Below are positions 4,173 to 38,010 of a stretch of 64,000 bases of DNA, in pieces. Position numbers and translations under genes: made by a program. Under the pieces are notes generated by a model. It did not search any database. It worked only from the letters and a program-made list of their open reading frames with translations, and was not told the origin of the DNA. Each line of letters opens with the position of its first letter. Position 1 is the first letter of the stretch. The DNA is from Alphaproteobacteria bacterium (GTDB taxonomy: Bacteria; Pseudomonadota; Alphaproteobacteria; RF32; CAG-239): the NCBI GenBank assembly GCA_015062585.1, contig SUUJ01000004.1, positions 94,512 to 158,511 of the forward strand, in the 5' to 3' direction.

Positions 4173-4339
4173 GTCTTAAATAAGCTTGCGGACGAGGTTA
4201 GCGATCTTCAAATTAGTTTAAAAACAAGGAAGATCCCTAGACGATTGCTCAACGCAATCGAGGGATGACTTTGTTGTTGTTTTAATGTCATGCCCTAAAC
4301 GGAGCGTTAGCGAAGTGCGGTCAGGCATCTTCAAATTAG
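4173..4339. repeat. REP-like palindromic units of the GTCAT...ATGAC type: one complete pair plus one truncated unit
   Basis: GTCTTAAA..GCGATCTT..AAGATCCC..AGGGATGAC, then GTCATGCC..GGCATCTT; same architecture as 26308-26405 and 26607-26704. Confidence 0.7.
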
Positions 4340-4518
4340 TTCTTATGTTACTTTTGAATGACCAAAAGTAACCAAAAGTCACCGCTCAAGATGTTTTTTT
4401 ATACGCTTTTTTCAACCGGATGTGCCCTTCACATTCGTTGGCTGATTTTGGGTGCATAAAAGGAGAGTCTCCGATTAAAAAAAGCTAAAAAACATAAATC
4501 GCGGTTGTTGTTTTTTTT
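4340..4518. repeat. Dispersed ~180-bp long-hairpin element, copy 1 (MITE-like or structured RNA)
   Basis: Near-identical to 26420-26596; GTTACTTTTG..CAAAAGTAAC hairpin followed by a long foldback ACCGC...GCGGT. Confidence 0.85.
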
Positions 4519-13625: not shown

Positions 13626-15374
13626 CTATTGTTCATTATAACGATTTTGTTGATATTCACTTTTGATAAATGCTCGCAACAGACCTCCGGCATCTTCGGG
13701 AATTTCGCGGTATTGCTGAATCTTTGCCTGCATTTTTTCATCATATTTTTCTTCTTTTGATCCTTGCTTAATCGAGAATCCTTTATCTTTGCTTTCTTCG
13801 CCTTTTTTTTGCTCGCTGTCATCGACTTCATTCATTGTAGAGTTTGTATCTTTGTTGCCTTTATCATCTTTTTTATCGGAATGAGCGTCTTGTTTTGTTT
13901 GGTCATTACCCTGTTTTTGTTGTTGCTGTTGTGCTTTGGCGTCTTGTTCGCCCTGAGATTCTTGTTCATTTTCTTGTTGTTCGTCAGAGTTTTGGTCAGA
14001 TTGCGTTTGATCCTGTTGTTGATTCTGCTTATTGTTTTGTGAATCATTTTTGTCATCTTTGTTGTCTTGATTATTTTTATTTTGTCTGGCTTGTTGTTGA
14101 TTTTGCTGTTTCTTCAAATACTCAAGATTAAATTTAGCGTCTTCATGATTCGGTTCCAGTTTCAAGACTTCTTCATATTTTTTGATAGCTTCACTTATTT
14201 TACCACCCTTGGCTAAAGCATTGCCTTGATTATACAACCCCGTAACGGAAGTATCCTTACTGAAAAGCTCGTAAGATTTTTGATAATCGCCAAGCTTGTA
14301 ATAGCTTGAGGCCAGCCAATTATCGTCATCAAATTTGCTTATAGCTGTTTCATAATCGCCTTTATTATATGCCTGATAACCTTCCTGTTTGTCGCTATAT
14401 AAAAATCCGGCGTAAGCATTGGAGGATATAAGCAAAAAGGCGATAACAAGAATACCTTTTCTGAATAGGGCAGCACAACAAACAAGCGGTATGATAAGCA
14501 AATACCAACCGGCATCAAGCCAGATATTGCGCAAATTTTTGCCTTTTTGCATTTCTTTATCGGAGGTATTCAGCTCTTCGGCAAAACGAGAAATCATATT
14601 ATCATCATTTTTGATATTCCAATACATACCGCCACCTGCCTGAGCCACAAGGCGCAGTTTTTCATTTGCGGTTGCCGTTACTCCGATAATATTTATTTTT
14701 ACATTTTGCTTGTTGGCTTTTTTGGCTTCTTCAATAGCCAAATCAAATTTTTGTCCGACATCCGGTGTAAATATAAGCATATTTCCCTGATTAAAACCGG
14801 CTGATTTTATTCGTTCAACCCCCAATTGAATTGCCCTGTCGAGCCTGTCGCCGTTAGCCGGCATAATATTAAAATCAACTGCCGAAAGCAAATTTTGCAA
14901 AATCTTCATATCATCGGTTAGAGGCGAAATGACAAAGGGCTCGGAAGAATAAACCATCAATCCGGCCTGAACGGTTTTTAACATATTAAGCAGATCATCA
15001 ATTTTGTATTTTGCTCGGGTCAAGCGATTGGGGGCAAGGTCTTTTTCATTCATATCCGACGACATATTCAGCGCAATCATCAAAGGATTTTGCACCTCAA
15101 ATGCCGGAACCTCGATTTTTTGAAAACTGGGACCGGCAGAAGCTATTATGGCAAATATTATCGCCAAAAAGCTTGATAGTGCAAACATTTTGCGCTTTTG
15201 AGCCGAGCCTTTTACCAAAAGATATGAAAGCAATCTTTTATCAATCACTTTTTGCCATGATGATTGCATATTTGACATTTTGTAATAACGGGAATAAAGC
15301 AAAAACGGTATTAACAACAACAGCAATAGCCATGGGCGCATAAAATGAAAATTTGTCATAAATTCAGCCATCAT
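13626..15374 (-). CDS. VWA + TPR protein (BatB/BatC-like fusion) with a Q/N/D-rich tail
   Basis: NMSSDM..DLAPNRLTRAK, SSEPFVISPLTDD, TPR YNQGNALAK...EPNHEDAKFNL, low-complexity linker. Confidence 0.85.
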   Translation of the reverse strand: MMAEFMTNFHFMRPWLLLLLLIPFLLYSRYYKMSNMQSSWQKVIDKRLLSYLLVKGSAQKRKMFALSSFLAIIFAIIASAGPSFQKIEVPAFEVQNPLMIALNMSSDMNEKDLAPNRLTRAKYKIDDLLNMLKTVQAGLMVYSSEPFVISPLTDDMKILQNLLSAVDFNIMPANGDRLDRAIQLGVERIKSAGFNQGNMLIFTPDVGQKFDLAIEEAKKANKQNVKINIIGVTATANEKLRLVAQAGGGMYWNIKNDDNMISRFAEELNTSDKEMQKGKNLRNIWLDAGWYLLIIPLVCCAALFRKGILVIAFLLISSNAYAGFLYSDKQEGYQAYNKGDYETAISKFDDDNWLASSYYKLGDYQKSYELFSKDTSVTGLYNQGNALAKGGKISEAIKKYEEVLKLEPNHEDAKFNLEYLKKQQNQQQARQNKNNQDNKDDKNDSQNNKQNQQQDQTQSDQNSDEQQENEQESQGEQDAKAQQQQQKQGNDQTKQDAHSDKKDDKGNKDTNSTMNEVDDSEQKKGEESKDKGFSIKQGSKEEKYDEKMQAKIQQYREIPEDAGGLLRAFIKSEYQQNRYNEQ

Positions 15375-16363
15375 TTGCCACCTCGCAAAAGATAAAACAT
15401 CAGCATACTCAGCACTACGGCAATTAACAGCGGTATATAAAACAAATCGGTTGCTTCTTGAATATATCTTTGATCTTGAGATGTCGGTTCAAGTTCGTCT
15501 ATGATTTGATATATCTTTTGCAAACCTGCGGTGTCTTCGGCTCTGAAATATTGACCTTTGGTAAGCTTAGCCAATTCTTTCATTGCTTGTTCATCTACTC
15601 CGGGGGCCGACATTGATATCATCTTAAAAAAGACATTGGGTGCGCCTACACCAATAGTATAAATTTTGATATTTTCGTCAGAAGCCAATTTTATGGCTTG
15701 TCCCATCGAGATTGCGCCATCATTATTTTCACCATCAGTCAGAAGAATAATTATTTTATTGTCTTTATTTTTTTCTTCGCGAAGTTTTTTCAAAGCCAAT
15801 CCCAATGCGTCGCCGATACTGGTAGAATCTCCGGCCATACCGGCTTTCATTGACCACAAAATATCTTTGACAGATGCCTTGTCAAAAGTGAGCGGCGATT
15901 GTAAATATGCACGAGTTCCGAATAATATTAGCCCTATTCTGTCGTTGGCGCGTTTATCGGCAAAATCGGACACCACTTTTTTTACGGCGTCAAGGCGCGT
16001 GATTCTGCGACCATATAATGAAAAATCATCTTCTACCATTGATGTTGAAATATCCAACACAAGCATAATATCTCTGGCTTCGTTTTTTAGGCGAATAGGT
16101 TCACCAAGAAGTTGGGGACGGGCACAAGCTATGGTTAAAAAGAGCCAAACCAGATACAAAAACCAAAATCTTTTGGATAATTTGCTCTCGGAAGCGGAAG
16201 CATTCCAAATAGAGCCGGCAGAAATTGAGATTCTTTTCAGATCATCGATAAACGGAGCTTTTAGGGCTTCACCGTGCATTCCTTTGACTGCCGGTGTCAA
16301 AAGGTAGATAATAAAAGGTATTACGAGCAACAAAAAAGCCAAAGGATAAGCAAAAACAATCAT
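15371..16363 (-). CDS. batA: BatA-type VWA domain protein
   Basis: MIDAS DISTSM, DRIGLILFG, TSIGDAL, LTDGENN; start set at 16363 (AGGAG RBS, ATGA overlap). Confidence 0.85.
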   Translation of the reverse strand: MIVFAYPLAFLLLVIPFIIYLLTPAVKGMHGEALKAPFIDDLKRISISAGSIWNASASESKLSKRFWFLYLVWLFLTIACARPQLLGEPIRLKNEARDIMLVLDISTSMVEDDFSLYGRRITRLDAVKKVVSDFADKRANDRIGLILFGTRAYLQSPLTFDKASVKDILWSMKAGMAGDSTSIGDALGLALKKLREEKNKDNKIIILLTDGENNDGAISMGQAIKLASDENIKIYTIGVGAPNVFFKMISMSAPGVDEQAMKELAKLTKGQYFRAEDTAGLQKIYQIIDELEPTSQDQRYIQEATDLFYIPLLIAVVLSMLMFYLLRGGK

Positions 16364-18222: not shown

Positions 18223-19320
18223 ATGAGTTCTGTTCACGCAACAAAAGTTTTAGGTCTTACCAGCGGTTCGTCTTTAGACGGGGTTAATGCTTCGATTATT
18301 GTTACCGATGGTGTTGATGTTTTTGAAAGAATCAAAACTTTTGATATTCCCTATGATGATAATTTGCGCGAAGCACTTCGTCATATGCAAAAAAATCATC
18401 TTAGAATGAACGATGATGAAAAGCTCAGAATCGAAAATTCGCTGACTGACTTTCACATAGGTATTGCGCGCGAAATTCTGTGTGATTATGAAGGCATTGA
18501 TTTAATCGGTTTTAGCGGACATATAATCTGCCACAAACCGAGCGAGCATATTTTGTATCAAATCGGCGACGCACAAAAAATGGCAAATGAACTAAAAATT
18601 AAGGTTGTTTCAAAATTTCGCAATGCCGATATTTTAGCCGGAGGTCAAGGAGCTCCTCTATCACCGGTATATCACGCATCAATTACGCAAAATATGGAAA
18701 AACCTTTGGCCATAGTTGATATTGGCGGTATCAGTTCTATTACATTTGTCGGACAAAACGGCGAATTAATGGCGTTTGATACCGGACCGGGAAATGCCGC
18801 AATTAACGAATGGGTTAACAAACATGGCGGTATGTATATGGACTATAACGGCAAACTTGGTATTACCGGTCACATAAATGATGAAGTTTTGAGCGCTATG
18901 ATGAAGCACAAATACCTAAAACTATTGCCGCCAAAAGCTACTGACAGTGCTACTTTTAAGGACAAATTGGAACATTTGGAAGGTTTGTCTTTAGAAGACG
19001 GATGCGCTACCGCAACCGCCTATGTTGCAACATCAATATTAAAAGCAATAGATGATTTTATACCTATTACGCCAAAGCAAATCATTGTATGTGGCGGAGG
19101 CGCAAAAAATCCGACACTGGTTCGTTTCTTAAAACAGCGTTCAATCGGCATGGAAATAGTGACAGCACAAGAATGCGATTTTGAGCCTTTGGGTATTGAG
19201 GCCGAAGCTTTCGGATTTTTGGCCGTCAGACGCTTACAGTTTATGCCAACCTCATTTCCATTTACCACAGGGGCTTCGCAAGAGGTCATCGGGGGTGAAA
19301 TTTTTGAGCCTAAAAATTAG
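18223..19320 (+). CDS. anmK: Anhydro-N-acetylmuramic acid kinase
   Basis: GLTSGSSLDG, GGQGAPL, DIGGIS, FDTGPGN, EAEAFGFLA; divergent from tyrS as in other alphaproteobacteria. Confidence 0.9.
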   Translation: MSSVHATKVLGLTSGSSLDGVNASIIVTDGVDVFERIKTFDIPYDDNLREALRHMQKNHLRMNDDEKLRIENSLTDFHIGIAREILCDYEGIDLIGFSGHIICHKPSEHILYQIGDAQKMANELKIKVVSKFRNADILAGGQGAPLSPVYHASITQNMEKPLAIVDIGGISSITFVGQNGELMAFDTGPGNAAINEWVNKHGGMYMDYNGKLGITGHINDEVLSAMMKHKYLKLLPPKATDSATFKDKLEHLEGLSLEDGCATATAYVATSILKAIDDFIPITPKQIIVCGGGAKNPTLVRFLKQRSIGMEIVTAQECDFEPLGIEAEAFGFLAVRRLQFMPTSFPFTTGASQEVIGGEIFEPKN

Positions 19321-19448
19321 CCTTATCAAATATTATGTTTTTGTTACATTTTAAAGTGGCATAAAATAATTATTGATATTCAATATGTTACGCACACATT
19401 ATGGGGCGTTTGCACTCTGTCCGCATTATTGCTTTTTTAACTGTTTTG

Positions 19449-19471
19449 TGCTATAATCTATAATAGATTAT
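19449..19471 (+). promoter_or_regulatory. Extended -10 (TG-C-TATAAT) overlapped by a perfect 9-1-9 palindrome
   Basis: TGCTATAAT at 19449-19457; ATAATCTAT-A-ATAGATTAT at 19453-19471. Confidence 0.6.
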
Positions 19472-19505
19472 TGTATTTTTTGCTGATGTGTACAGGAGAA
19501 AGGTC

Positions 19506-22500
19506 ATGACAAAATATTTGAAGATAGCATTGTTTGCAATGATTGGAATAATGTTTTCAGGCATTGCTGAAGCTGCGATTACACCAATTAACGAAGCTGA
19601 GAATGACTTAAAGTTCGGCTCCAGAAAAAAGGGCGAATTAAAATGTGATAACATAACTACATTTTCATCACCCAAAAGCGGTATGGATTGCAAAGTTGTA
19701 ACACTATCTGATAATAAAACCCAATGTTGGAAATGCGATTGCTCGCAAAAAGACTATCCTTATACTAAAGAAAATTGCTCAGGCAAATTGATACTCGACA
19801 CATCTTCAAGTTCCTGTACAGATATTACAACCGGCAAAAAATATTATAAAACTTGTGAGTGCGGTGAAGGTTTGCTTGCCGCTGAAGAAGCTAAAAAATA
19901 CGCTACTTATTTTGATATAGGAAGTCCGGTTCAATCAGCCGGCAATCTTGCTTGTTATGACCCGAAGAAATTTACCTGTAAAAACGCAAGCAACAAAATT
20001 ACAGTTAGTGATATAACAAGCTATCAACACACCTCGGCTAAGACCCGAGTTAAATCGAAAGATGAACCTGTTTGGTATGAGGTGGCTACCAATATCGAAA
20101 CATCAAACAAGGATCATAATGATTTGGTTATGTGTGTTAAAAAAGTAGATGAATTTACTTCAAATGTTATGTCATTTCAACCTGAAGCTAAAACCTGTGT
20201 TGAAACATCTACAGGCACAACAAAATTCTTAAATATTTCATACCATTATTACAGCGGATGTAATACGACCAGATCGGGATGTCAAGAATCATCTCATCCT
20301 TGCGTTGAAGAAGAAATTGTTGAAGTTAACGGATATAGCACATCGACTAAAGAAGCAAAAACTTTTTCATGTAGCCATATATCAGGCTGTAAGATAGGTA
20401 AACAAGAAGATTCTTTGTGTGATAAAGCACCTGCTACGGACATTCCTGATCTTGTATATAATAAGGATAACGGTTGTGCACAGATTTCTTGTTCGGATAT
20501 TTATGAATATGTCGGATCCGGCACAGGCGAAACAAGTTTTAATGATGCTAACGGTGATTCAGCAAATACAAATTACACTTATGTTTCAAAAGCACCTGAT
20601 GCATCATCTGATGGTTGGATTATTTGTCGCGTGAAAAATCCTTCTCCGATAGATGAACCAACTAAAGAAGGAGAAGGAATTTGTCCGAGTGATGCGACAT
20701 TGACAGCAGATGGTGTATGTAAATGTAATAATCCGGATAAGAAGCTTGTCACCGATGATAATGGCGAGATGTACTGTGAATGTGAAGAAGGATGGCGTGA
20801 TGATCCGTTTGATGACGAAGATAAATGCGTTGTAGATCCGACATCTGAAGTAATGCAATGTCCGGAACCGTCTATTCTTAATGAAGACACAGGTGAATGT
20901 ATCTGTGAAGATAATGGTGTATGTTCACTTAATTGTGTGGATGGAAAATATGAACTTTGCGGATATTTTCCGATAACCGCAACAGGTACAACCTGTACTG
21001 ATCTTATTTGGGATTCTCAAAAACAAATGTATCTATGTAAAAACGGCAGTACAACATTTACATCAACTAGATGGGATTGTATAAAAACCGAGAGAAAATG
21101 TAAACAAGCTTGCTCTACATATGTACCTGACGGACATATCTGTACTCAAACCACAGTAGATGGCAAGATTTGTTATACAGATTGCGTACCTTCAATCTGC
21201 GGAACCGGATATGTAAATAAAGGTGAATATATAGTATATGGATCCACCGGTGCTAATACACATAAAATGATTGCTGTTAAGCAGGGTGGAAAATATTATA
21301 ACCCATATATACATAGTTCAGGTAATTTTTCACATGATAACTATAAATCAGGAATAAGTGACGAATACACAGGATTATCATCAAGTGTTACAAGCGGCTT
21401 ATCAGCTCTTGCAGATTATCAAAACATTACTTTCTGGGCTGACGGTGGTTGTGCTGAAAGTTCAGGAATGATGTGGATTGGTAAGAATGGAAAATTAGAA
21501 TGCGTAAATAAATCAACGACTAAAGCTTCTCATTTGATTTATTTGACAACTTGTACCTGTCCTGCGGGTGCTACAGGTTCATTAGAGGAGAAAACAGTAT
21601 ATGATGCTTTCAATTGCAAAGCCGGCCAATATTATTCCGGTAGCGGTTATGATTGTAGCACACAAGCTAACACATATTTGGTTGCAAGTGTAACTAATGG
21701 CAATGCTATAGTTGCTATGAAAGCCCAAGACCTTAATTCGCCGGCATTTGAAGTTACCGGAGATGTATTTGAACAAGCTCGCAATAATGCTTTTGGAAAA
21801 TGCGAATCAGAAGGAGTTTTATCTGACAGTGAATATAGTACTATTGCAAATAAACTCCGTATAATTTGGCCTGATATATATAATAACACTTGTGTCTTTG
21901 TAGAATCAGGAAATTTGGTGCGTACATATGATAACAAATTATGTTCCGGTACCGATGCTGCTGCTTTAGTTGCGAACGGATGTGGTGATTGTGTCGATGG
22001 TAATAAAATAAAGGCTCGAGTAATTTGTAAAAAAGATTTCTTATCTAAGTCTACAACAACAAAATACTCAAAATGTACTTGTCCGTCAGACCAGATTTAT
22101 GATGGTGCAACAGGTGAATGTATAGATTATTGTCCTAACAAAGGTACTACGACCTATTGCGACAGCACAAAATATAATTGTGAATATGAGAAATGTTCCG
22201 GTAAATATATTGTATCTTGCGGTTCTTATTTTAACAAATCAGGAACACCATCTTGTCCTTCAGACAGGATCGTAGATAAATGTTCTGTAAACAATTACAA
22301 ATATGCGTGTGCTACTTGTGAAGAATCCGACATGTATAAAGGGTCAACAAAGATGAAAACCAGATTAACCCTCGGTGGTAGAATTAGCGGATCAACGAAA
22401 AGTGGACCAACTCAATCATATTCCGCTACCGTGAATGTATATAATTTATGCGGTGAAAAAGTAGCTTCAACAAACGCTTCTTTATGGAATATCACTTCTG

Positions 22501-22724
22501 GAATGAATACTCAAACCAGTGAATCCAGCGAAGCAATACCTGCTGGTGAGTATGATGTAGAGGTATATACTAACCTTAATTATGGTCCATATAGTATTTT
22601 ATCTTTTGATAAACTGGCTATCAATGGAACAGATTATCGTAATACCGGATTGAGTGGTAAGGTTAGAGTTAAACTGGCAACCACTCAACAAGTAACCGTA
22701 GAAATCAGACCTATATTCTATTAA
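19506..22724 (+). CDS. Large secreted cysteine-rich protein (about 1072 aa)
   Basis: Sec signal ending AEA, about 68 Cys counted, CxC and EGF-like spacing; AGGAG RBS before ATG 19506. Confidence 0.85.
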   Translation: MTKYLKIALFAMIGIMFSGIAEAAITPINEAENDLKFGSRKKGELKCDNITTFSSPKSGMDCKVVTLSDNKTQCWKCDCSQKDYPYTKENCSGKLILDTSSSSCTDITTGKKYYKTCECGEGLLAAEEAKKYATYFDIGSPVQSAGNLACYDPKKFTCKNASNKITVSDITSYQHTSAKTRVKSKDEPVWYEVATNIETSNKDHNDLVMCVKKVDEFTSNVMSFQPEAKTCVETSTGTTKFLNISYHYYSGCNTTRSGCQESSHPCVEEEIVEVNGYSTSTKEAKTFSCSHISGCKIGKQEDSLCDKAPATDIPDLVYNKDNGCAQISCSDIYEYVGSGTGETSFNDANGDSANTNYTYVSKAPDASSDGWIICRVKNPSPIDEPTKEGEGICPSDATLTADGVCKCNNPDKKLVTDDNGEMYCECEEGWRDDPFDDEDKCVVDPTSEVMQCPEPSILNEDTGECICEDNGVCSLNCVDGKYELCGYFPITATGTTCTDLIWDSQKQMYLCKNGSTTFTSTRWDCIKTERKCKQACSTYVPDGHICTQTTVDGKICYTDCVPSICGTGYVNKGEYIVYGSTGANTHKMIAVKQGGKYYNPYIHSSGNFSHDNYKSGISDEYTGLSSSVTSGLSALADYQNITFWADGGCAESSGMMWIGKNGKLECVNKSTTKASHLIYLTTCTCPAGATGSLEEKTVYDAFNCKAGQYYSGSGYDCSTQANTYLVASVTNGNAIVAMKAQDLNSPAFEVTGDVFEQARNNAFGKCESEGVLSDSEYSTIANKLRIIWPDIYNNTCVFVESGNLVRTYDNKLCSGTDAAALVANGCGDCVDGNKIKARVICKKDFLSKSTTTKYSKCTCPSDQIYDGATGECIDYCPNKGTTTYCDSTKYNCEYEKCSGKYIVSCGSYFNKSGTPSCPSDRIVDKCSVNNYKYACATCEESDMYKGSTKMKTRLTLGGRISGSTKSGPTQSYSATVNVYNLCGEKVASTNASLWNITSGMNTQTSESSEAIPAGEYDVEVYTNLNYGPYSILSFDKLAINGTDYRNTGLSGKVRVKLATTQQVTVEIRPIFY

Positions 22725-22750
22725 AAATTTATATCGGTTATATATCACAG

Positions 22751-22799
22751 CTACTAGCCGCTCGAGAGAGAATATCTTGAGCGGTTGGTGGTTTCTTTT
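22751..22799 (+). terminator. Intrinsic terminator after the Cys-rich gene
   Basis: CTACTAGCCGCTCGAGA..TCTTGAGCGGTTGGTGG stem plus T-rich tail. Confidence 0.7.
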
Positions 22800-22889
22800 A
22801 GCATACTAAATATTATAAAAGTGCCTTCTTGACAGATAAAGACTTGAGTGTCAAAATTTTTGCCATAGGTTTATTTAAGGAGGCATGTT

Positions 22890-23537
22890 ATGGCGACAAC
22901 AAGAGCTTATTCACCAAGTGAAGAATTGTGGAGTTCGATAATTCATGGTATCGGTATCGGATTAAGCATTGCCGGATTGGTTTTGTTGGTAGTCTTTGCT
23001 TCGCTATATGCTGATGTTTGGGCGATTGTTTCCACTGCCATTTTCGGCGCCAGTATGATTGTGTTGTACACGGCTTCGACACTTTACCACGCCTTTAGAG
23101 ATGAGGACATAAAGAAAAAGCTCAAAAAATTTGATCATATTTCGATTTATTATCTGATTGCCGGATCATACACACCATTTTTATTAGTTTCGCTTCGTGG
23201 CGTTACCGGTTGGGTCATTTTCGGCATTATCTGGGGGTTGGCAATTTTGGGTACAGTCTTAAAGCTTGCCACCTCGGGAAGCGGCACCAAAATTTGGTCA
23301 ATATCATTATACCTGATTATGGGTTGGTTGATTGTTTTTGCTTCAAAATCATTGGTCAGTGCCATTCCGTCTTTGGGACTTATCTTTTTGGTTTTGGGCG
23401 GATTGCTTTATACATTCGGCGTGTTGTTTTATGTTCAAAAATCCAAAAAATATACCCACGCAATTTGGCACTTTTTTGTGCTTAGCGGTACGGTAATGCA
23501 TTTTTTTGCAATATTGTATTCTTGTGTGCTGGTTTAG
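22890..23537 (+). CDS. Hemolysin III / PAQR-family membrane protein (TrhA/YqfA-like)
   Basis: SEE..SSIIHG, STLYH, DHISIYYLIAGSYTP, HAIWHFFV; seven TM segments. Confidence 0.92.
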   Translation: MATTRAYSPSEELWSSIIHGIGIGLSIAGLVLLVVFASLYADVWAIVSTAIFGASMIVLYTASTLYHAFRDEDIKKKLKKFDHISIYYLIAGSYTPFLLVSLRGVTGWVIFGIIWGLAILGTVLKLATSGSGTKIWSISLYLIMGWLIVFASKSLVSAIPSLGLIFLVLGGLLYTFGVLFYVQKSKKYTHAIWHFFVLSGTVMHFFAILYSCVLV

Positions 23538-24118
23538 TTTACACTGCGTTTAATGTCTTCGATACGCGGTAACACCGAATTTTCGATAATAAATGCAATT
23601 GAGCGGGCAACAACTTTGTCGGTATGTTTGACCGCGTCCCAAGTAGCCTGAGAGGTCTCGCCTTTTAGCGCAATCTTGGTGTATAGAGTTGCCATTTCGG
23701 ACAAAGAATCGACGATTTGTGCAATATAGCCGGGAATTTTTAAGTTTTCTTCACCACCGAAAAATCCTTCAACAAAACCTTGTTCGACTTCTTCAAAACG
23801 ATTTTGGCAATAAATTTCGATGTCTTTTTCTTTGGATATGGGGAGTTTTACCTCTACTTTTTTAACATCTTCAAAAACTTCGTCCCAAAGTCCCATAAAA
23901 AACTTAAAGAACAAGTCTGCTTCTTGCTTAGTTTCTAAACGCGGAGCGCGTCCTTCTTCCCAAAATGATGATATAACATCGGTGGGGCGTAAGTTCATAT
24001 TCGGAGAGCAAATTGCTCCGGCAAAACGCATTTTTATGACATTTAGAGGTGTCGGACAAGAGTAGTGTTCCAACATTTTGATAAAAGCTTCATCACCAAT
24101 ATATTTGTTTGCTTGCAT
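23534..24118 (-). CDS. UPF0149/YecA-like protein
   Basis: RFAGAICSP..RPTDVI..W, FMGLW pattern. Confidence 0.5.
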   Translation of the reverse strand: MQANKYIGDEAFIKMLEHYSCPTPLNVIKMRFAGAICSPNMNLRPTDVISSFWEEGRAPRLETKQEADLFFKFFMGLWDEVFEDVKKVEVKLPISKEKDIEIYCQNRFEEVEQGFVEGFFGGEENLKIPGYIAQIVDSLSEMATLYTKIALKGETSQATWDAVKHTDKVVARSIAFIIENSVLPRIEDIKRSVN

Positions 24119-24187: not shown

Positions 24188-24505
24188 TTGGCAAGTACGA
24201 AAATTATAAATATTGCGGTTTTAACATCTTTGCTTTGCGCTTGTGCGCAGTTTGGTCCGTTTGTCGATCGACGACGAGAAGCCGGCGGTTTCTCTGATGG
24301 TGCATTATATGCGGGAGTATCTACCCCCGAAAATCCTGCCGTATGTTATAATATTTTGTACACTTCTTATGATGAAGTCAAAGCCTTGGCTGATGAAGAA
24401 TGCAAAAAAAACAAGACAGGAAATCAGGCTGTTCCGGTAAAGCAAACCGTATTTACTTGTCGTTTGCTGGTGCCGAATCATTATTACTTTAAGTGTGAAC
24501 AATAA
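24188..24505 (+). CDS. Small lipoprotein of unknown function
   Basis: Lipobox LCAC after a hydrophobic stretch; TTG start with AGGGAG RBS; paired Cys. Confidence 0.65.
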   Translation: MASTKIINIAVLTSLLCACAQFGPFVDRRREAGGFSDGALYAGVSTPENPAVCYNILYTSYDEVKALADEECKKNKTGNQAVPVKQTVFTCRLLVPNHYYFKCEQ

Positions 24506-36910: not shown

Positions 36911-37915
36911 TTAGGCCTTAGCTTTCTTAGTTGTTTTTGTTGCCTTTTTAACAGTTTTCTTAGCAGTTGTCTTCTTAGCCGGTTTAGCTTTCTTTTCTGT
37001 TTTTTTGGCAACTGTTTTCTTAGCAGTTGTCTTCTTAGCCGGCTTGGCTTTCTTTTCTGCTTTTTTGGCAACTGTTTTTTTAGCAGTTGTCTTCTTAGCC
37101 GGTTTAGCTTTCTTTTCAGTCTTTTTGGCAACTGTTTTCTTAGCAGTTGTCTTTTTGGCCGGTTTAGCTTTCTTTTCAGTCTTTTTGGCAACTGTTTTCT
37201 TAGCAGTTGTCTTCTTAGCCGGTTTAGCTTTCTTTTCAGTCTTTTTGGCAACTGTTTTCTTAGCAGTTGTCTTCTTAGCCGGTTTAGCTTTCTTTTCAGT
37301 CTTTTTGGCAACTGTTTTTTTAGCAGCAGTTTTTTTAGTAGTCTTTTTAGCCTTAGCTTTCTTAACTTTTACCTTTTTCTCCGGTTTTGGCTTAGGTTGA
37401 GAAGCTACTAACGCTTTTTCAATATCAGCCTCACTACACAAACCGATAGTAACCGGATTCTTTGGTCTGATATTGGCAGCGTCCTTGTGAGTTCCTTCAC
37501 GAATAGCTTGAATTGTTGTTTTGGTTGTACCAATCAACTTGCATACCAAAGTATCTTTAATTTGCGGATAATTTTTCAAAATCCAAGCAATTGCATTTGG
37601 TTTGTCTTGGCGTTGTGACGGTGACAATATCTTTTTAGCCTTCAAATTGCGAGCTTTGACATTGCGTTCCATTTCAGAAGCTTGTAAATTGGCCTTTTTA
37701 TCGGCTTCGCAACGATGAATTTCATCCCAAGTCAATTGACCATTGTCAACCGGTGAAAGACCGCGTATATTTCCCGAAACATCGCCATCAGCCATAGCTT
37801 GAATTTCAAGTTCGTGTATTTCGCAAAAAACCGATATCTGACGGAATGTCAAAGTGGTGTTTTCTACCAACCACACAGCTGTTGCTTTGGGCATTAAAGG
37901 TGCTGTCATAACCAT
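36911..37915 (-). CDS. trcR: DUF1013/TrcR-family regulator with a Lys/Ala-rich histone-H1-like tail
   Basis: PLMPKATAVWLVENTTLTF, GQLT..EI.RCE, RQDKPNAIAW, PKNPVTIGLC; repeat tail. Confidence 0.8.
   Translation of the reverse strand: MVMTAPLMPKATAVWLVENTTLTFRQISVFCEIHELEIQAMADGDVSGNIRGLSPVDNGQLTWDEIHRCEADKKANLQASEMERNVKARNLKAKKILSPSQRQDKPNAIAWILKNYPQIKDTLVCKLIGTTKTTIQAIREGTHKDAANIRPKNPVTIGLCSEADIEKALVASQPKPKPEKKVKVKKAKAKKTTKKTAAKKTVAKKTEKKAKPAKKTTAKKTVAKKTEKKAKPAKKTTAKKTVAKKTEKKAKPAKKTTAKKTVAKKTEKKAKPAKKTTAKKTVAKKAEKKAKPAKKTTAKKTVAKKTEKKAKPAKKTTAKKTVKKATKTTKKAKA
36951..37330 (-). repeat. 60-bp coding tandem repeat, about 6 copies (KKTTAKKTVAKKTEKKAKPA)
   Basis: Positions 36961, 37021, 37081, 37141, 37201 and 37261 all start TAGCAGTTGT with a near-identical 60-mer. 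Confidence 0.97.
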
Positions 37916-38010
37916 ATCCTTTCCATAAAATAAATTATTCTTAAAAACTTTTGTTTAAGAATAGTTTTTTTATTTCAAATATACAAGTTTTTTTTGACGG
38001 TTTATATATG

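Follow-up and report, generated by a model that had tools for sequence, protein, structure and literature searches.

What kind of protein carries 68 cysteines in a gut alphaproteobacterium, where in the cell is it likely to reside, and does it belong to any known family? These questions are raised by a single gene (positions 19506..22724, plus strand; 1072 amino acids (aa), 68 cysteines) in a 64 000-nucleotide stretch of alphaproteobacterial DNA (contig SUUJ01000004.1; hereafter, the window). The evidence described below indicates that the product of this gene is likely to be an extracytoplasmic, disulfide-bonded member of a new protein family. The more complete reading, namely, that this is a Sec-exported, disulfide-stapled, modular and hypervariable protein that is displayed on the cell surface or secreted, is slightly favoured.

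The first-pass annotation of this gene had put the number of cysteines at about 68, with recurrent CxC units. Exactly 68 are present among the 1072 residues (6.34%), compared with 0.72% in the pooled products of the 34 other genes in the window (maximum, 2.9%); about 8 would be expected from these other genes, and the binomial probability of at least 68 is 6e-41. The CxC motif occurs seven times, and all three motifs quoted in that annotation are found, CPSDATLTADGVCKC at residue 393, CPEPSILNEDTGECIC at residue 452 and CTCPSDQIYDGATGECIDYC at residue 857. Between the window protein and its allele P0002, 66 of the 68 cysteines are kept, and in the variable region of these two proteins, 35 of the 37 cysteine columns are kept at an overall identity of 69%. 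The number of cysteines that follow the signal peptide is even in all 12 long proteins for which it was counted (five alleles and seven other long relatives), an outcome with a chance of about 1 in 4096 by a simple coin-flip comparison, whereas odd counts are found in five short relatives with a tryptophan-rich tail and in P0015 (773 aa). Because the counts are even and the positions are conserved, the cysteines are best interpreted as forming internal disulfides rather than binding metal, and this pattern fits what would be expected of complete internal pairing in an oxidizing compartment.

High cysteine content alone would also be compatible with a cytoplasmic or membrane-associated protein that binds metals or metal clusters, a case that the first-pass annotation had raised against its own proposal. 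However, a typical cleavable signal peptide is kept in all relatives, which together with the even cysteine counts argues against a cytoplasmic location, histidine accounts for only 0.9% of the residues, repeated CxxC...CxxC cluster motifs are lacking, and the protein is rich in serine, threonine and asparagine as well as in beta-strands, as extracellular proteins are. A metal-binding protein is, accordingly, a very unlikely explanation. Near one of the paralogs, P0012, an 887-897-aa ScsB/DsbD-like reductase (DsbD_TM and Thioredoxin_7 domains) is encoded two genes upstream (L085:397-3090 and L086:407-3070); this proximity is suggestive only, and it is the one hint of an enlarged Dsb set.

Comparison with the known protein families was uniformly negative. 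The whole protein shows no match in Pfam, NCBIfam or the PDB sequences even at E ≤ 10, five separate segments searched against Pfam yielded nothing significant (best E = 0.029, AsqO_C), and neither did the alleles, the paralogs and three profiles when compared with Pfam, NCBIfam and the PDB sequences. The clear assignment to a known family that would have overturned the first-pass annotation was, therefore, sought in these three resources and not found. The ‘eukaryote-like disulfide modules' of that annotation are borne out in style and cysteine spacing but not in ancestry, given that no homology to EGF, furin-like or variant surface protein (VSP) repeats was detected in Pfam at E ≤ 10 and that the EGF-like, furin-like, GCC2_GCC3 and Giardia VSP models of Pfam produced no match at the gathering score. 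Sub-threshold Pfam hints among the relatives include cEGF (0.036), MSP1-EGF (0.21), Etmic-2 (0.007) and ADGRF3_N (0.005). What the window protein shares with Pfs25 or with the Fu repeats of R-spondin is the serial arrangement of short disulfide-knotted modules, a likeness of style only; for the model of the N-terminal domain, Foldseek does list Pfs25 and RSPO2, but without significance (E from 1.4 to 9, with query template-modelling (TM) scores of 0.06-0.09). Judging from the sequence, the likeness to EGF, furin-like and VSP repeats is one of composition and spacing, not of detectable homology.

The same features could be taken to indicate a gene of eukaryotic origin, that is, an EGF, furin-like or VSP gene that was acquired or mis-binned from a protist or the host, or else a chimeric assembly: the cysteine spacing and the CxC...TGEC motifs recall protist and metazoan repeats, and cEGF, MSP1-EGF and Etmic-2 are among the weak matches of the relatives. 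Nevertheless, the gene sits between bacterial housekeeping genes on many independent contigs, is equipped with a bacterial Shine-Dalgarno sequence and terminator, has a GC content of 36.8%, close to the 37.7% of the window, has no eukaryotic relatives among those with recovered contigs, and is not matched by the EGF, furin or VSP models of Pfam. This explanation is close to refuted.

To what, then, is the protein related? A HMMER/phmmer search of 1.84 billion representative proteins (E ≤ 1e-3) identified 21 relatives, of which about 17, namely, 16 (P0008-P0022 and P0024) along with allele fragments, share the N-terminal part (about 95 to about 375 aa, with phmmer E-values from 4e-27 to 4e-4). 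The C-terminal part, which comprises central domain A, the cysteine knot and the final sandwich described below, is shared with P0006 and P0023, so that the membership of a family claimed in the first-pass annotation rests on both ends of the protein, with at least two relatives for the latter. The N-terminal signature in the window protein consists of MTKYLK...AEA followed, past the cleavage site, by AAITPINE, and the same pattern is present in P0005-P0024. The n-region, MTKY(I/L)K, hardly varies among the paralogs, the mean identity of which is 28%, and the peptide after the cleavage site follows the pattern A-K/A-V/I-I/T-x-hydrophobic-x-D/E (AKVIxvDD, AAITPINE, ARVTPINEY).

The family is defined by a cysteine-rich N-terminal beta domain (aa 47-378; 19644..20639, plus strand; 22 cysteines), which was delineated by phmmer, alignments and AlphaFold2 (AF2) modelling. 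In the alignment of 17 sequences, C47, C62, C74, C77 and C79 are invariant, and C104 and C119 are present in at least 90% of the members. No part other than the first subdomain (aa 47-122) is common to all members; in the allele P0004 and in P0006 and P0019, this subdomain runs directly into EGF-style repeats. The AF2 model built from the 17-sequence alignment predicts an all-beta structure for aa 43-380 with a mean confidence (pLDDT) of 79.5, 143 residues at 90 or above and a predicted TM score (pTM) of 0.65, whereas aa 1-42 are unstructured (pLDDT < 50). Foldseek comparison of this model revealed no neighbour either in PDB (best E = 0.39, TM 0.10) or in BFVD (best E = 0.076). As modelled, the N domain is, thus, a fold without a detectable relative in these two libraries.

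All relatives with recovered contigs are located among alphaproteobacterial genes of uncultured gut bacteria, with a GC content of 37-39% where measured. Further word-indexed protein searches yielded very little, a scan of genome contigs with signal-peptide patterns derived from the allele alignment gave no match, and a literature search produced no description of such proteins in this lineage. This is a small, lineage-restricted and previously undescribed family.

Members of the family come in diverse architectures. The short ones (P0008, P0010, P0016, P0020 and P0021; 374-469 aa) consist of the N domain and a tryptophan-rich tail (C-x-x-N-T-A-W-x-G-W-L-K-C), and their odd cysteine counts could reflect a free cysteine or an intermolecular disulfide. 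P0015 (773 aa) combines the N domain with a thioredoxin domain (E = 3.5e-19) and a rubredoxin-like one (E = 2.3e-13), a fusion that may be real or may be an artefact of gene calling or assembly. A second cysteine-rich head also exists, in which the signal peptide is followed by C-x4-5-C-x-x-LGY-x5-6-C-x6-8-C-P-F/L and then by repeated modules of about 115 aa (L088:1694-3229, L091:5744-7291, L067:6521-7258 and P0023). In two species, a protein with this head is encoded directly after a member of the N-domain family, and in P0023 the second head is joined to the C-terminal part of the window protein, which suggests module shuffling between the two families. The metagenome-assembled genome (MAG) of the nearest species, in which the gene is absent beside anmK, contains two members and another cysteine-rich protein in tandem beside an RND efflux operon: between this operon and rplM, P0016 (454 aa), a 515-aa LGYT-head protein and P0009 (1335 aa) form a cluster (L091:4316-12008; GCA_045639065.1, the same MAG as L003). 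The gene after paralog P0006 (L089:9947-10870) encodes an OMP_b-brl barrel with a cysteine-rich N-terminal stretch (CPCDPEE...CPCES).

Large, secreted-looking open reading frames (ORFs) with 6-12% cysteine are also found within 10 kb of tyrS in related genomes (L027:33-2000, L043:1749-3020, L051:7309-8805, L052:1058-3067, L053:789-2888, L054:912-2912 and L071:12586-13722), and in several of these, the N-terminal signal peptide gives way to C-F-L-P-D or T-F-L-P-D. Homology of these ORFs to the window protein was considered and rejected, with no significant similarity in BLASTP and phmmer searches (the best match, between the C-terminal domain and L027, has E = 0.076 in a tiny database). They seem to be proteins of the same kind but not of the same family, and the export of cysteine-rich proteins seems to be a general habit of the lineage.

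The other defining property of this gene is its variability. The AnmK-X-HlyIII locus is occupied in one species by at least four alleles, with products of 1072, 1061, 947 and 729 aa; the neighbouring proteins are 98.5-100% identical, in contrast to 81%, 74% or 62% for this protein. Thus, in L002, a locus from the same species, TyrRS, AnmK, HlyIII, the 194-aa protein encoded nearby and ArgRS are 99-100% identical to their counterparts in the window, and the cysteine-rich protein is only 81% identical. An independent metagenome contig, the one locus detected in a scan of metagenome contigs, carries a P0002-like allele at the same place (81% identical, 1061 aa). In the 947-aa allele (62% identical), most of the N domain is replaced by EGF-style repeats, and in the 729-aa allele (74% identical), the central and C-terminal domains are replaced by a Gly/Asn-rich tail. 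Replaced blocks are found also in other gut metagenomes (runs X7 and X10), with positions 20968-21121 and 21659-22014 affected in one run, and in a sheep gut run, the block 22325-22784, which encompasses the C-terminal domain, is replaced.

Nucleotide alignment of the window with L002 shows a hypervariable mosaic segment at aa ~300-842 (20400..22030, plus strand), where most 200-nucleotide (nt) bins contain 20-64 mismatches, compared with 0-7 in most of the flanking bins. The proportions of synonymous and non-synonymous differences (pS and pN) in this central region are 0.315 and 0.179, respectively, compared with 0.062 and 0.003 (ratio 0.05) for five neighbouring genes, and with ~0.015 and ~0.02 for the ends of the gene itself. 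The synonymous substitution rate (dS) is 0.41-0.68 in the centre and 0.016 in the ends; the central ratio of non-synonymous to synonymous rates (dN/dS) is about 0.5 (0.33-0.83 in sub-segments), and between aa 701 and 842, dS is 0.68 and dN is 0.36. Across the strains of one species, non-synonymous divergence is about 30-fold above that of the neighbours. Even the conserved gene ends gain amino acid changes several times faster than the neighbours, with dN/dS of about 1 or more, a ratio that derives from only ~15 substitutions in each end.

Because the central dS is high whereas the gene ends and the neighbouring genes are nearly identical, the centre of the gene is an old, diverged allele that was placed by recombination in a recent clonal frame. 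The central polymorphism within this species is, therefore, due to recombination that swaps diverged segments and whole domains. Flagellins and mosaic surface antigens show the same combination of conserved ends, a diverged centre (here, 1.6 kb with dS of up to 0.68), a nearly clonal background and replaced segments, although these proteins bear no sequence or fold relation to the window protein, and in some alleles of the window gene the N-terminal or C-terminal domains are swapped as well. Presumably, host antibodies, phages or variable ligands maintain the polymorphism through frequency-dependent selection. Two divergence spikes relative to L002 lie outside the gene, at 19235-19434 and 15235-15434 (16 and 17 mismatches per 200 nt, respectively), the first of which takes in the end of anmK and the intergenic DNA that immediately precedes the promoter-like site.

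Homologous recombination between strains is the simplest source of the mosaicism, and donor cassettes located elsewhere in the genome are another possible source. Within the 64-kb window, no silent partial copies of the gene were found with blastn and tblastn, nor were simple repeats, inverted repeats or invertible elements detected, including upstream of the gene. A diversity-generating retroelement was considered and rejected: the variable region extends over 1.6 kb, all base pairs are represented among the substitutions (AG 56, GA 49, TA 37, TC 30 and others) without adenine bias, and there is no template repeat of the gene elsewhere in the window. Upstream of the start of paralog P0012, by ~100-140 nt, there is a long (CA)n tract (L085, ~4315-4360), a possible phase-variation tract.

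The hypervariability bears directly on two further explanations. The first is that the protein acts as a soluble, secreted effector (for example, a toxin, a bacteriocin-like weapon or a host-modulating factor) that leaves the cell through a type II-like system and is not retained on it as a coat or adhesin. The signal peptide, the numerous disulfides and the lack of an anchor signal would all be expected of an effector, polymorphic toxins likewise combine a conserved N-terminal part with variable downstream parts, and the C-terminal ends differ between alleles of the window gene. Yet, searches of the alleles and paralogs detected neither toxin nor enzyme domains, the adjacent gene is not a small immunity-like gene but that of the HlyIII/TrhA homolog, which is 99.5-100% identical between strains, and the variation between the window and L002 lies in the middle of the protein rather than at its C-terminal tip. 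An effector, accordingly, appears unlikely.

The second explanation, which seems unlikely to the same extent, is a structural protein of the periplasm or of the inner face of the outer membrane that is cross-linked by disulfides, and would thereby make the envelope stiffer, in the manner of OmcA and OmcB. These chlamydial envelope proteins are Sec-exported, cysteine-rich and linked by periplasmic disulfides, and OmcB has also been reported to be an adhesin. The window protein, similarly, is a Sec-type, cysteine-rich protein of a diderm bacterium, several cysteine-rich paralogs are present per genome, and the odd cysteine counts of the short members leave one cysteine for intermolecular links. 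However, its cysteine content is much higher than that of OmcA and OmcB, it is modular and polymorphic between strains, and the 30-fold excess of amino acid divergence along with the domain swaps, next to neighbours that are 99% identical, would not be expected of a buried protein. The even number of cysteines in all 12 long members counted, the window protein included, suggests internal disulfides rather than cross-links, and no chlamydial cysteine-rich outer membrane protein family is found among the Pfam matches at E ≤ 10.

A Sec-exported, exposed and modular protein is thus retained as the preferred interpretation. Its domain organization can be followed from the N-terminus. The Sec-type signal peptide (aa 1-23, MTKYLKIALFAMIGIMFSGIAEA; 19506..19574, plus strand), recognized by inspection of the sequence, combines a basic n-region with a hydrophobic core of 15 residues and an AxA cleavage site, and is followed by AITP. 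The cleavage region reads GIAEA followed by A, and the first cysteine is residue 47, so that the lipobox L-x-x-C is absent and the protein is not a bacterial lipoprotein. The family alignment shows a conserved cysteine-free peptide after the cleavage site (aa 24-46; 19575..19643, plus strand), AAITPINE... in the window protein and AKVIxvDD in paralogs, which is a candidate sorting peptide, docking peptide or donor strand.

Downstream of the N domain, short cysteine-rich modules of EGF-like style (aa 386-565; 20661..21200, plus strand; 21 cysteines) are recognizable by sequence motifs, without a Pfam match. The two central domains lack Pfam matches as well: domain A (aa 566-700; 21201..21605, plus strand; 4 cysteines) is shared with P0006 and P0023, with an unreliable structural model, and domain B (aa 701-850; 21606..22055, plus strand; 8 cysteines) is the most divergent part between alleles. 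By eye, the central domains resemble Lcl_C/DUF1566 (PF07603), but this relationship was rejected, with hhalign E-values of 0.06-0.4 for domain B at probabilities below 1%; the only Lcl_C match, below the cut-off, is in an unrelated protein of L067 (6e-7). Next comes a cysteine-rich knot (aa 857-940; 22074..22325, plus strand; 12 cysteines) that is conserved between alleles and shared with P0006 and P0023.

The protein ends in a predicted beta-sandwich (aa 941-1072; 22326..22721, plus strand), which appears immunoglobulin-like (Ig-like) from AF2, Foldseek and a weak profile match. The nearly cysteine-free, beta-rich C-terminal domain noted in the first-pass annotation is thus recovered as the final 132 aa, which are predicted to be all beta and contain a single cysteine (C982). 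AF2 models eight to nine strands at pLDDT 62-82, and the best Foldseek match of the C-terminal part of the model is to an Ig-like domain of a Gram-positive pilin or adhesin (Spy0125; E = 4e-4, probability 0.99, ~125-145 columns); the Foldseek output is without aligned residues, and the placement of this match in the C-terminal domain is, accordingly, an inference. A weak profile match to the Ig-like domain of FlgD (E = 0.58) involves the shared motif G-x-V...P-x-G-x-Y-x-V. On this weaker evidence, the C-terminal domain looks like a generic Ig-like sandwich. The model resembles the Ig-like stalk domains of Gram-positive bacteria (Spy0125/Cpa, BcpA and PitB), although the window protein comes from a diderm host and lacks a sortase signal, the fold is a generic one and the model is moderately confident.

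How might such a protein reach its destination? In agreement with the first-pass annotation, the sequence contains a Sec signal but neither a lipobox nor an autotransporter barrel, of which there is no match in Pfam or NCBIfam. The type V route is further disfavoured by the size of the C-terminal domain (only 132 aa, modelled as a sandwich, compared with about 250-300 aa for a 12-strand translocator barrel), and as for type IX secretion, there is no C-terminal domain match in Pfam or NCBIfam and the host is an alphaproteobacterium, not a member of Bacteroidota. The export route, which that annotation had described as unknown, is still not recognizable.

Sec export and oxidation by the Dsb machinery are established processes in diderm bacteria. 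The window protein would, then, be exported via Sec with cleavage of the signal peptide after AEA, its 68 cysteines would be oxidized in the periplasm by Dsb to form ~34 disulfides, as the parity and conservation of the cysteines suggest, and the protein would finally arrive on the cell surface, or be shed from it, by a route not recognizable in its sequence. The last step is proposed because the polymorphism would imply exposure to an outside selective agent. Within the molecule, the signal peptide, the unstructured peptide of about 20 aa and the beta cysteine domain might constitute a common handle for export, docking or assembly, the EGF-style modules a rigid stalk or spacer, and the two central domains an exposed ligand-binding or antigenic part, with the C-terminal domain a putative Ig-like sandwich. 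As to the surface coat or adhesin family put forward in the first-pass annotation, the existence of a family is borne out, the signal peptide and the even cysteine counts indicate an extracytoplasmic protein, and the hypervariability fits an exposed coat or adhesin, whereas surface location and adhesion themselves are inferred.

Several observations weigh against this interpretation. No known signal for outer-membrane export or anchoring (lipobox, barrel, type IX secretion domain or type I secretion signal) was identified, nor was any ligand-binding domain. The AF2 model of aa 386-1072, built from seven sequences, is poor (pLDDT 51), which makes the assignment of stalk and head weak; only the first cysteine modules (aa ~395-425) and the last ~125 aa of this model are usable. 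The dN/dS values below 1 in the variable region point to an old, recombining polymorphism and do not by themselves demonstrate positive selection. The central and C-terminal domains are missing from P0005, as is most of the N domain from P0004, and therefore no single downstream domain is indispensable. Finally, the RNA contigs that match the gene (see below) are few and read-sized, with a depth of 2-5, represent assembled sequence instead of raw reads, and may include carried-over DNA.

The closest analogy, in style, is with the variant coats of protists. The Giardia VSPs and the immobilization antigens of ciliates are large, exported proteins with 6-12% cysteine in short repeated modules; they form multigene families with variable exposed parts and conserved cysteines, in gut-dwelling organisms. 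The window protein is likewise large, exported and cysteine-rich, belongs to a multigene family and varies while the cysteines are conserved. However, no sequence homology was detected, the window protein has neither a C-terminal transmembrane anchor nor a CRGKA tail, and CxxC is not its dominant motif. Furthermore, being bacterial and Sec-using, it must cross the outer membrane too, and its variation is allelic mosaicism between strains as opposed to demonstrated switching within a clone. A far-reaching and rather doubtful extension of the preferred reading would cast it as a bacterial counterpart of the protist variant coats: a disulfide-rich, multigene surface family with a previously unseen fold that is carried across, or docked to, the outer membrane by a new route in which the signal peptide and the unstructured peptide are recognized, possibly by strand donation, with the exposed domains shuffled by recombination so as to vary antigenicity or binding.

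The gene itself may be expressed as an independent unit. The start codon is the ATG at 19506, which is common to all alleles and paralogs (there is also an in-frame GTG at 19488), and it is preceded, at a distance of 6 nt, by the Shine-Dalgarno sequence AGGAGA (19494..19499, plus strand; read from the sequence); AAGGAG plus ATGACAAAATAT is kept upstream of five paralogs. A consensus scan detected the promoter-like TTAACT-16 nt-TATAAT (19437..19464, plus strand; 10 of 12 matches) in the 185-nt gap after anmK, and the coding sequence is followed by an intrinsic terminator with a 19-bp stem and a T run (22749..22803, plus strand; dG -31.1 kcal/mol, z -5.73). Because these signals flank the ORF, the gene looks like a stand-alone unit between anmK and the HlyIII/TrhA gene, as the first-pass annotation had it; the hairpin is a strong one, but the promoter-like site is weak evidence, given that such matches are no commoner in the window than in shuffled sequence. 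Despite the similar overall GC content, the third-position GC is 0.24 in this gene compared with 0.34-0.36 in anmK and argS. At least 23 indexed metagenome contigs encode the identical protein (P0001), and in other metagenome contigs the reading frame is intact and the cysteines are conserved. In three bovine gut metatranscriptomes, read-sized contigs match positions 19503-20678, the 5' third of the gene, at 90-99% identity, with coverage at least equal to that of the neighbouring housekeeping genes.

The flanking tyrosyl-tRNA synthetase retrieves 80 loci in species-representative genomes, with the nearest at 94-96% identity, nearly all of them from uncultured gut Alphaproteobacteria of humans, ruminants, horses and chickens, including ‘Candidatus Scatocola'; the runs that contain the gene come from faeces and gut metagenomes, including sheep and bovine gut. 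Given the flagellar genes, lpxC and bat genes that are also present in the window, the host is a motile, diderm gut bacterium of an ordinary kind. In the three nearest species representatives, the gene is missing from this place, and anmK is followed by trpS and serS, so that the gene sits at a break in synteny. Between the HlyIII/TrhA gene and argS lies the gene for the conserved 194-aa protein (23534-24118, minus strand), and next to it is a gene (24188-24505, plus strand) for a 105-aa protein that has several cysteines and begins like a lipoprotein (LLCAC); neither protein has a match in Pfam or NCBIfam, and the two genes travel with HlyIII and argS in L041, L048 and L073. Elsewhere in the window, a homolog of the cell-cycle regulator TrcR (36911-37954, minus strand; E = 2.6e-48) carries a long, highly basic, repetitive C-terminal extension rich in Lys, Leu and Arg that is weakly similar to the histone-H1-like HC2.

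Hypervariable exported proteins are a kind already known; what is new here is the family, the predicted fold of the N domain, an unusually high density of cysteines for a bacterial protein and the lack of recognizable outer-membrane targeting. Exported bacterial proteins with 6-10% cysteine and ~34 disulfides are rare, and a whole family of these in widespread uncultured gut bacteria would amount to an unstudied type of surface or secreted machinery. The N domain, with a confident model but without any structural neighbour, is an attractive candidate for structure determination, and the absence of an export or anchor signal raises the question of how diderm bacteria display such proteins. The locus is among the most polymorphic stretches of a near-clonal region, which makes it a probable target of selection and a useful strain marker.

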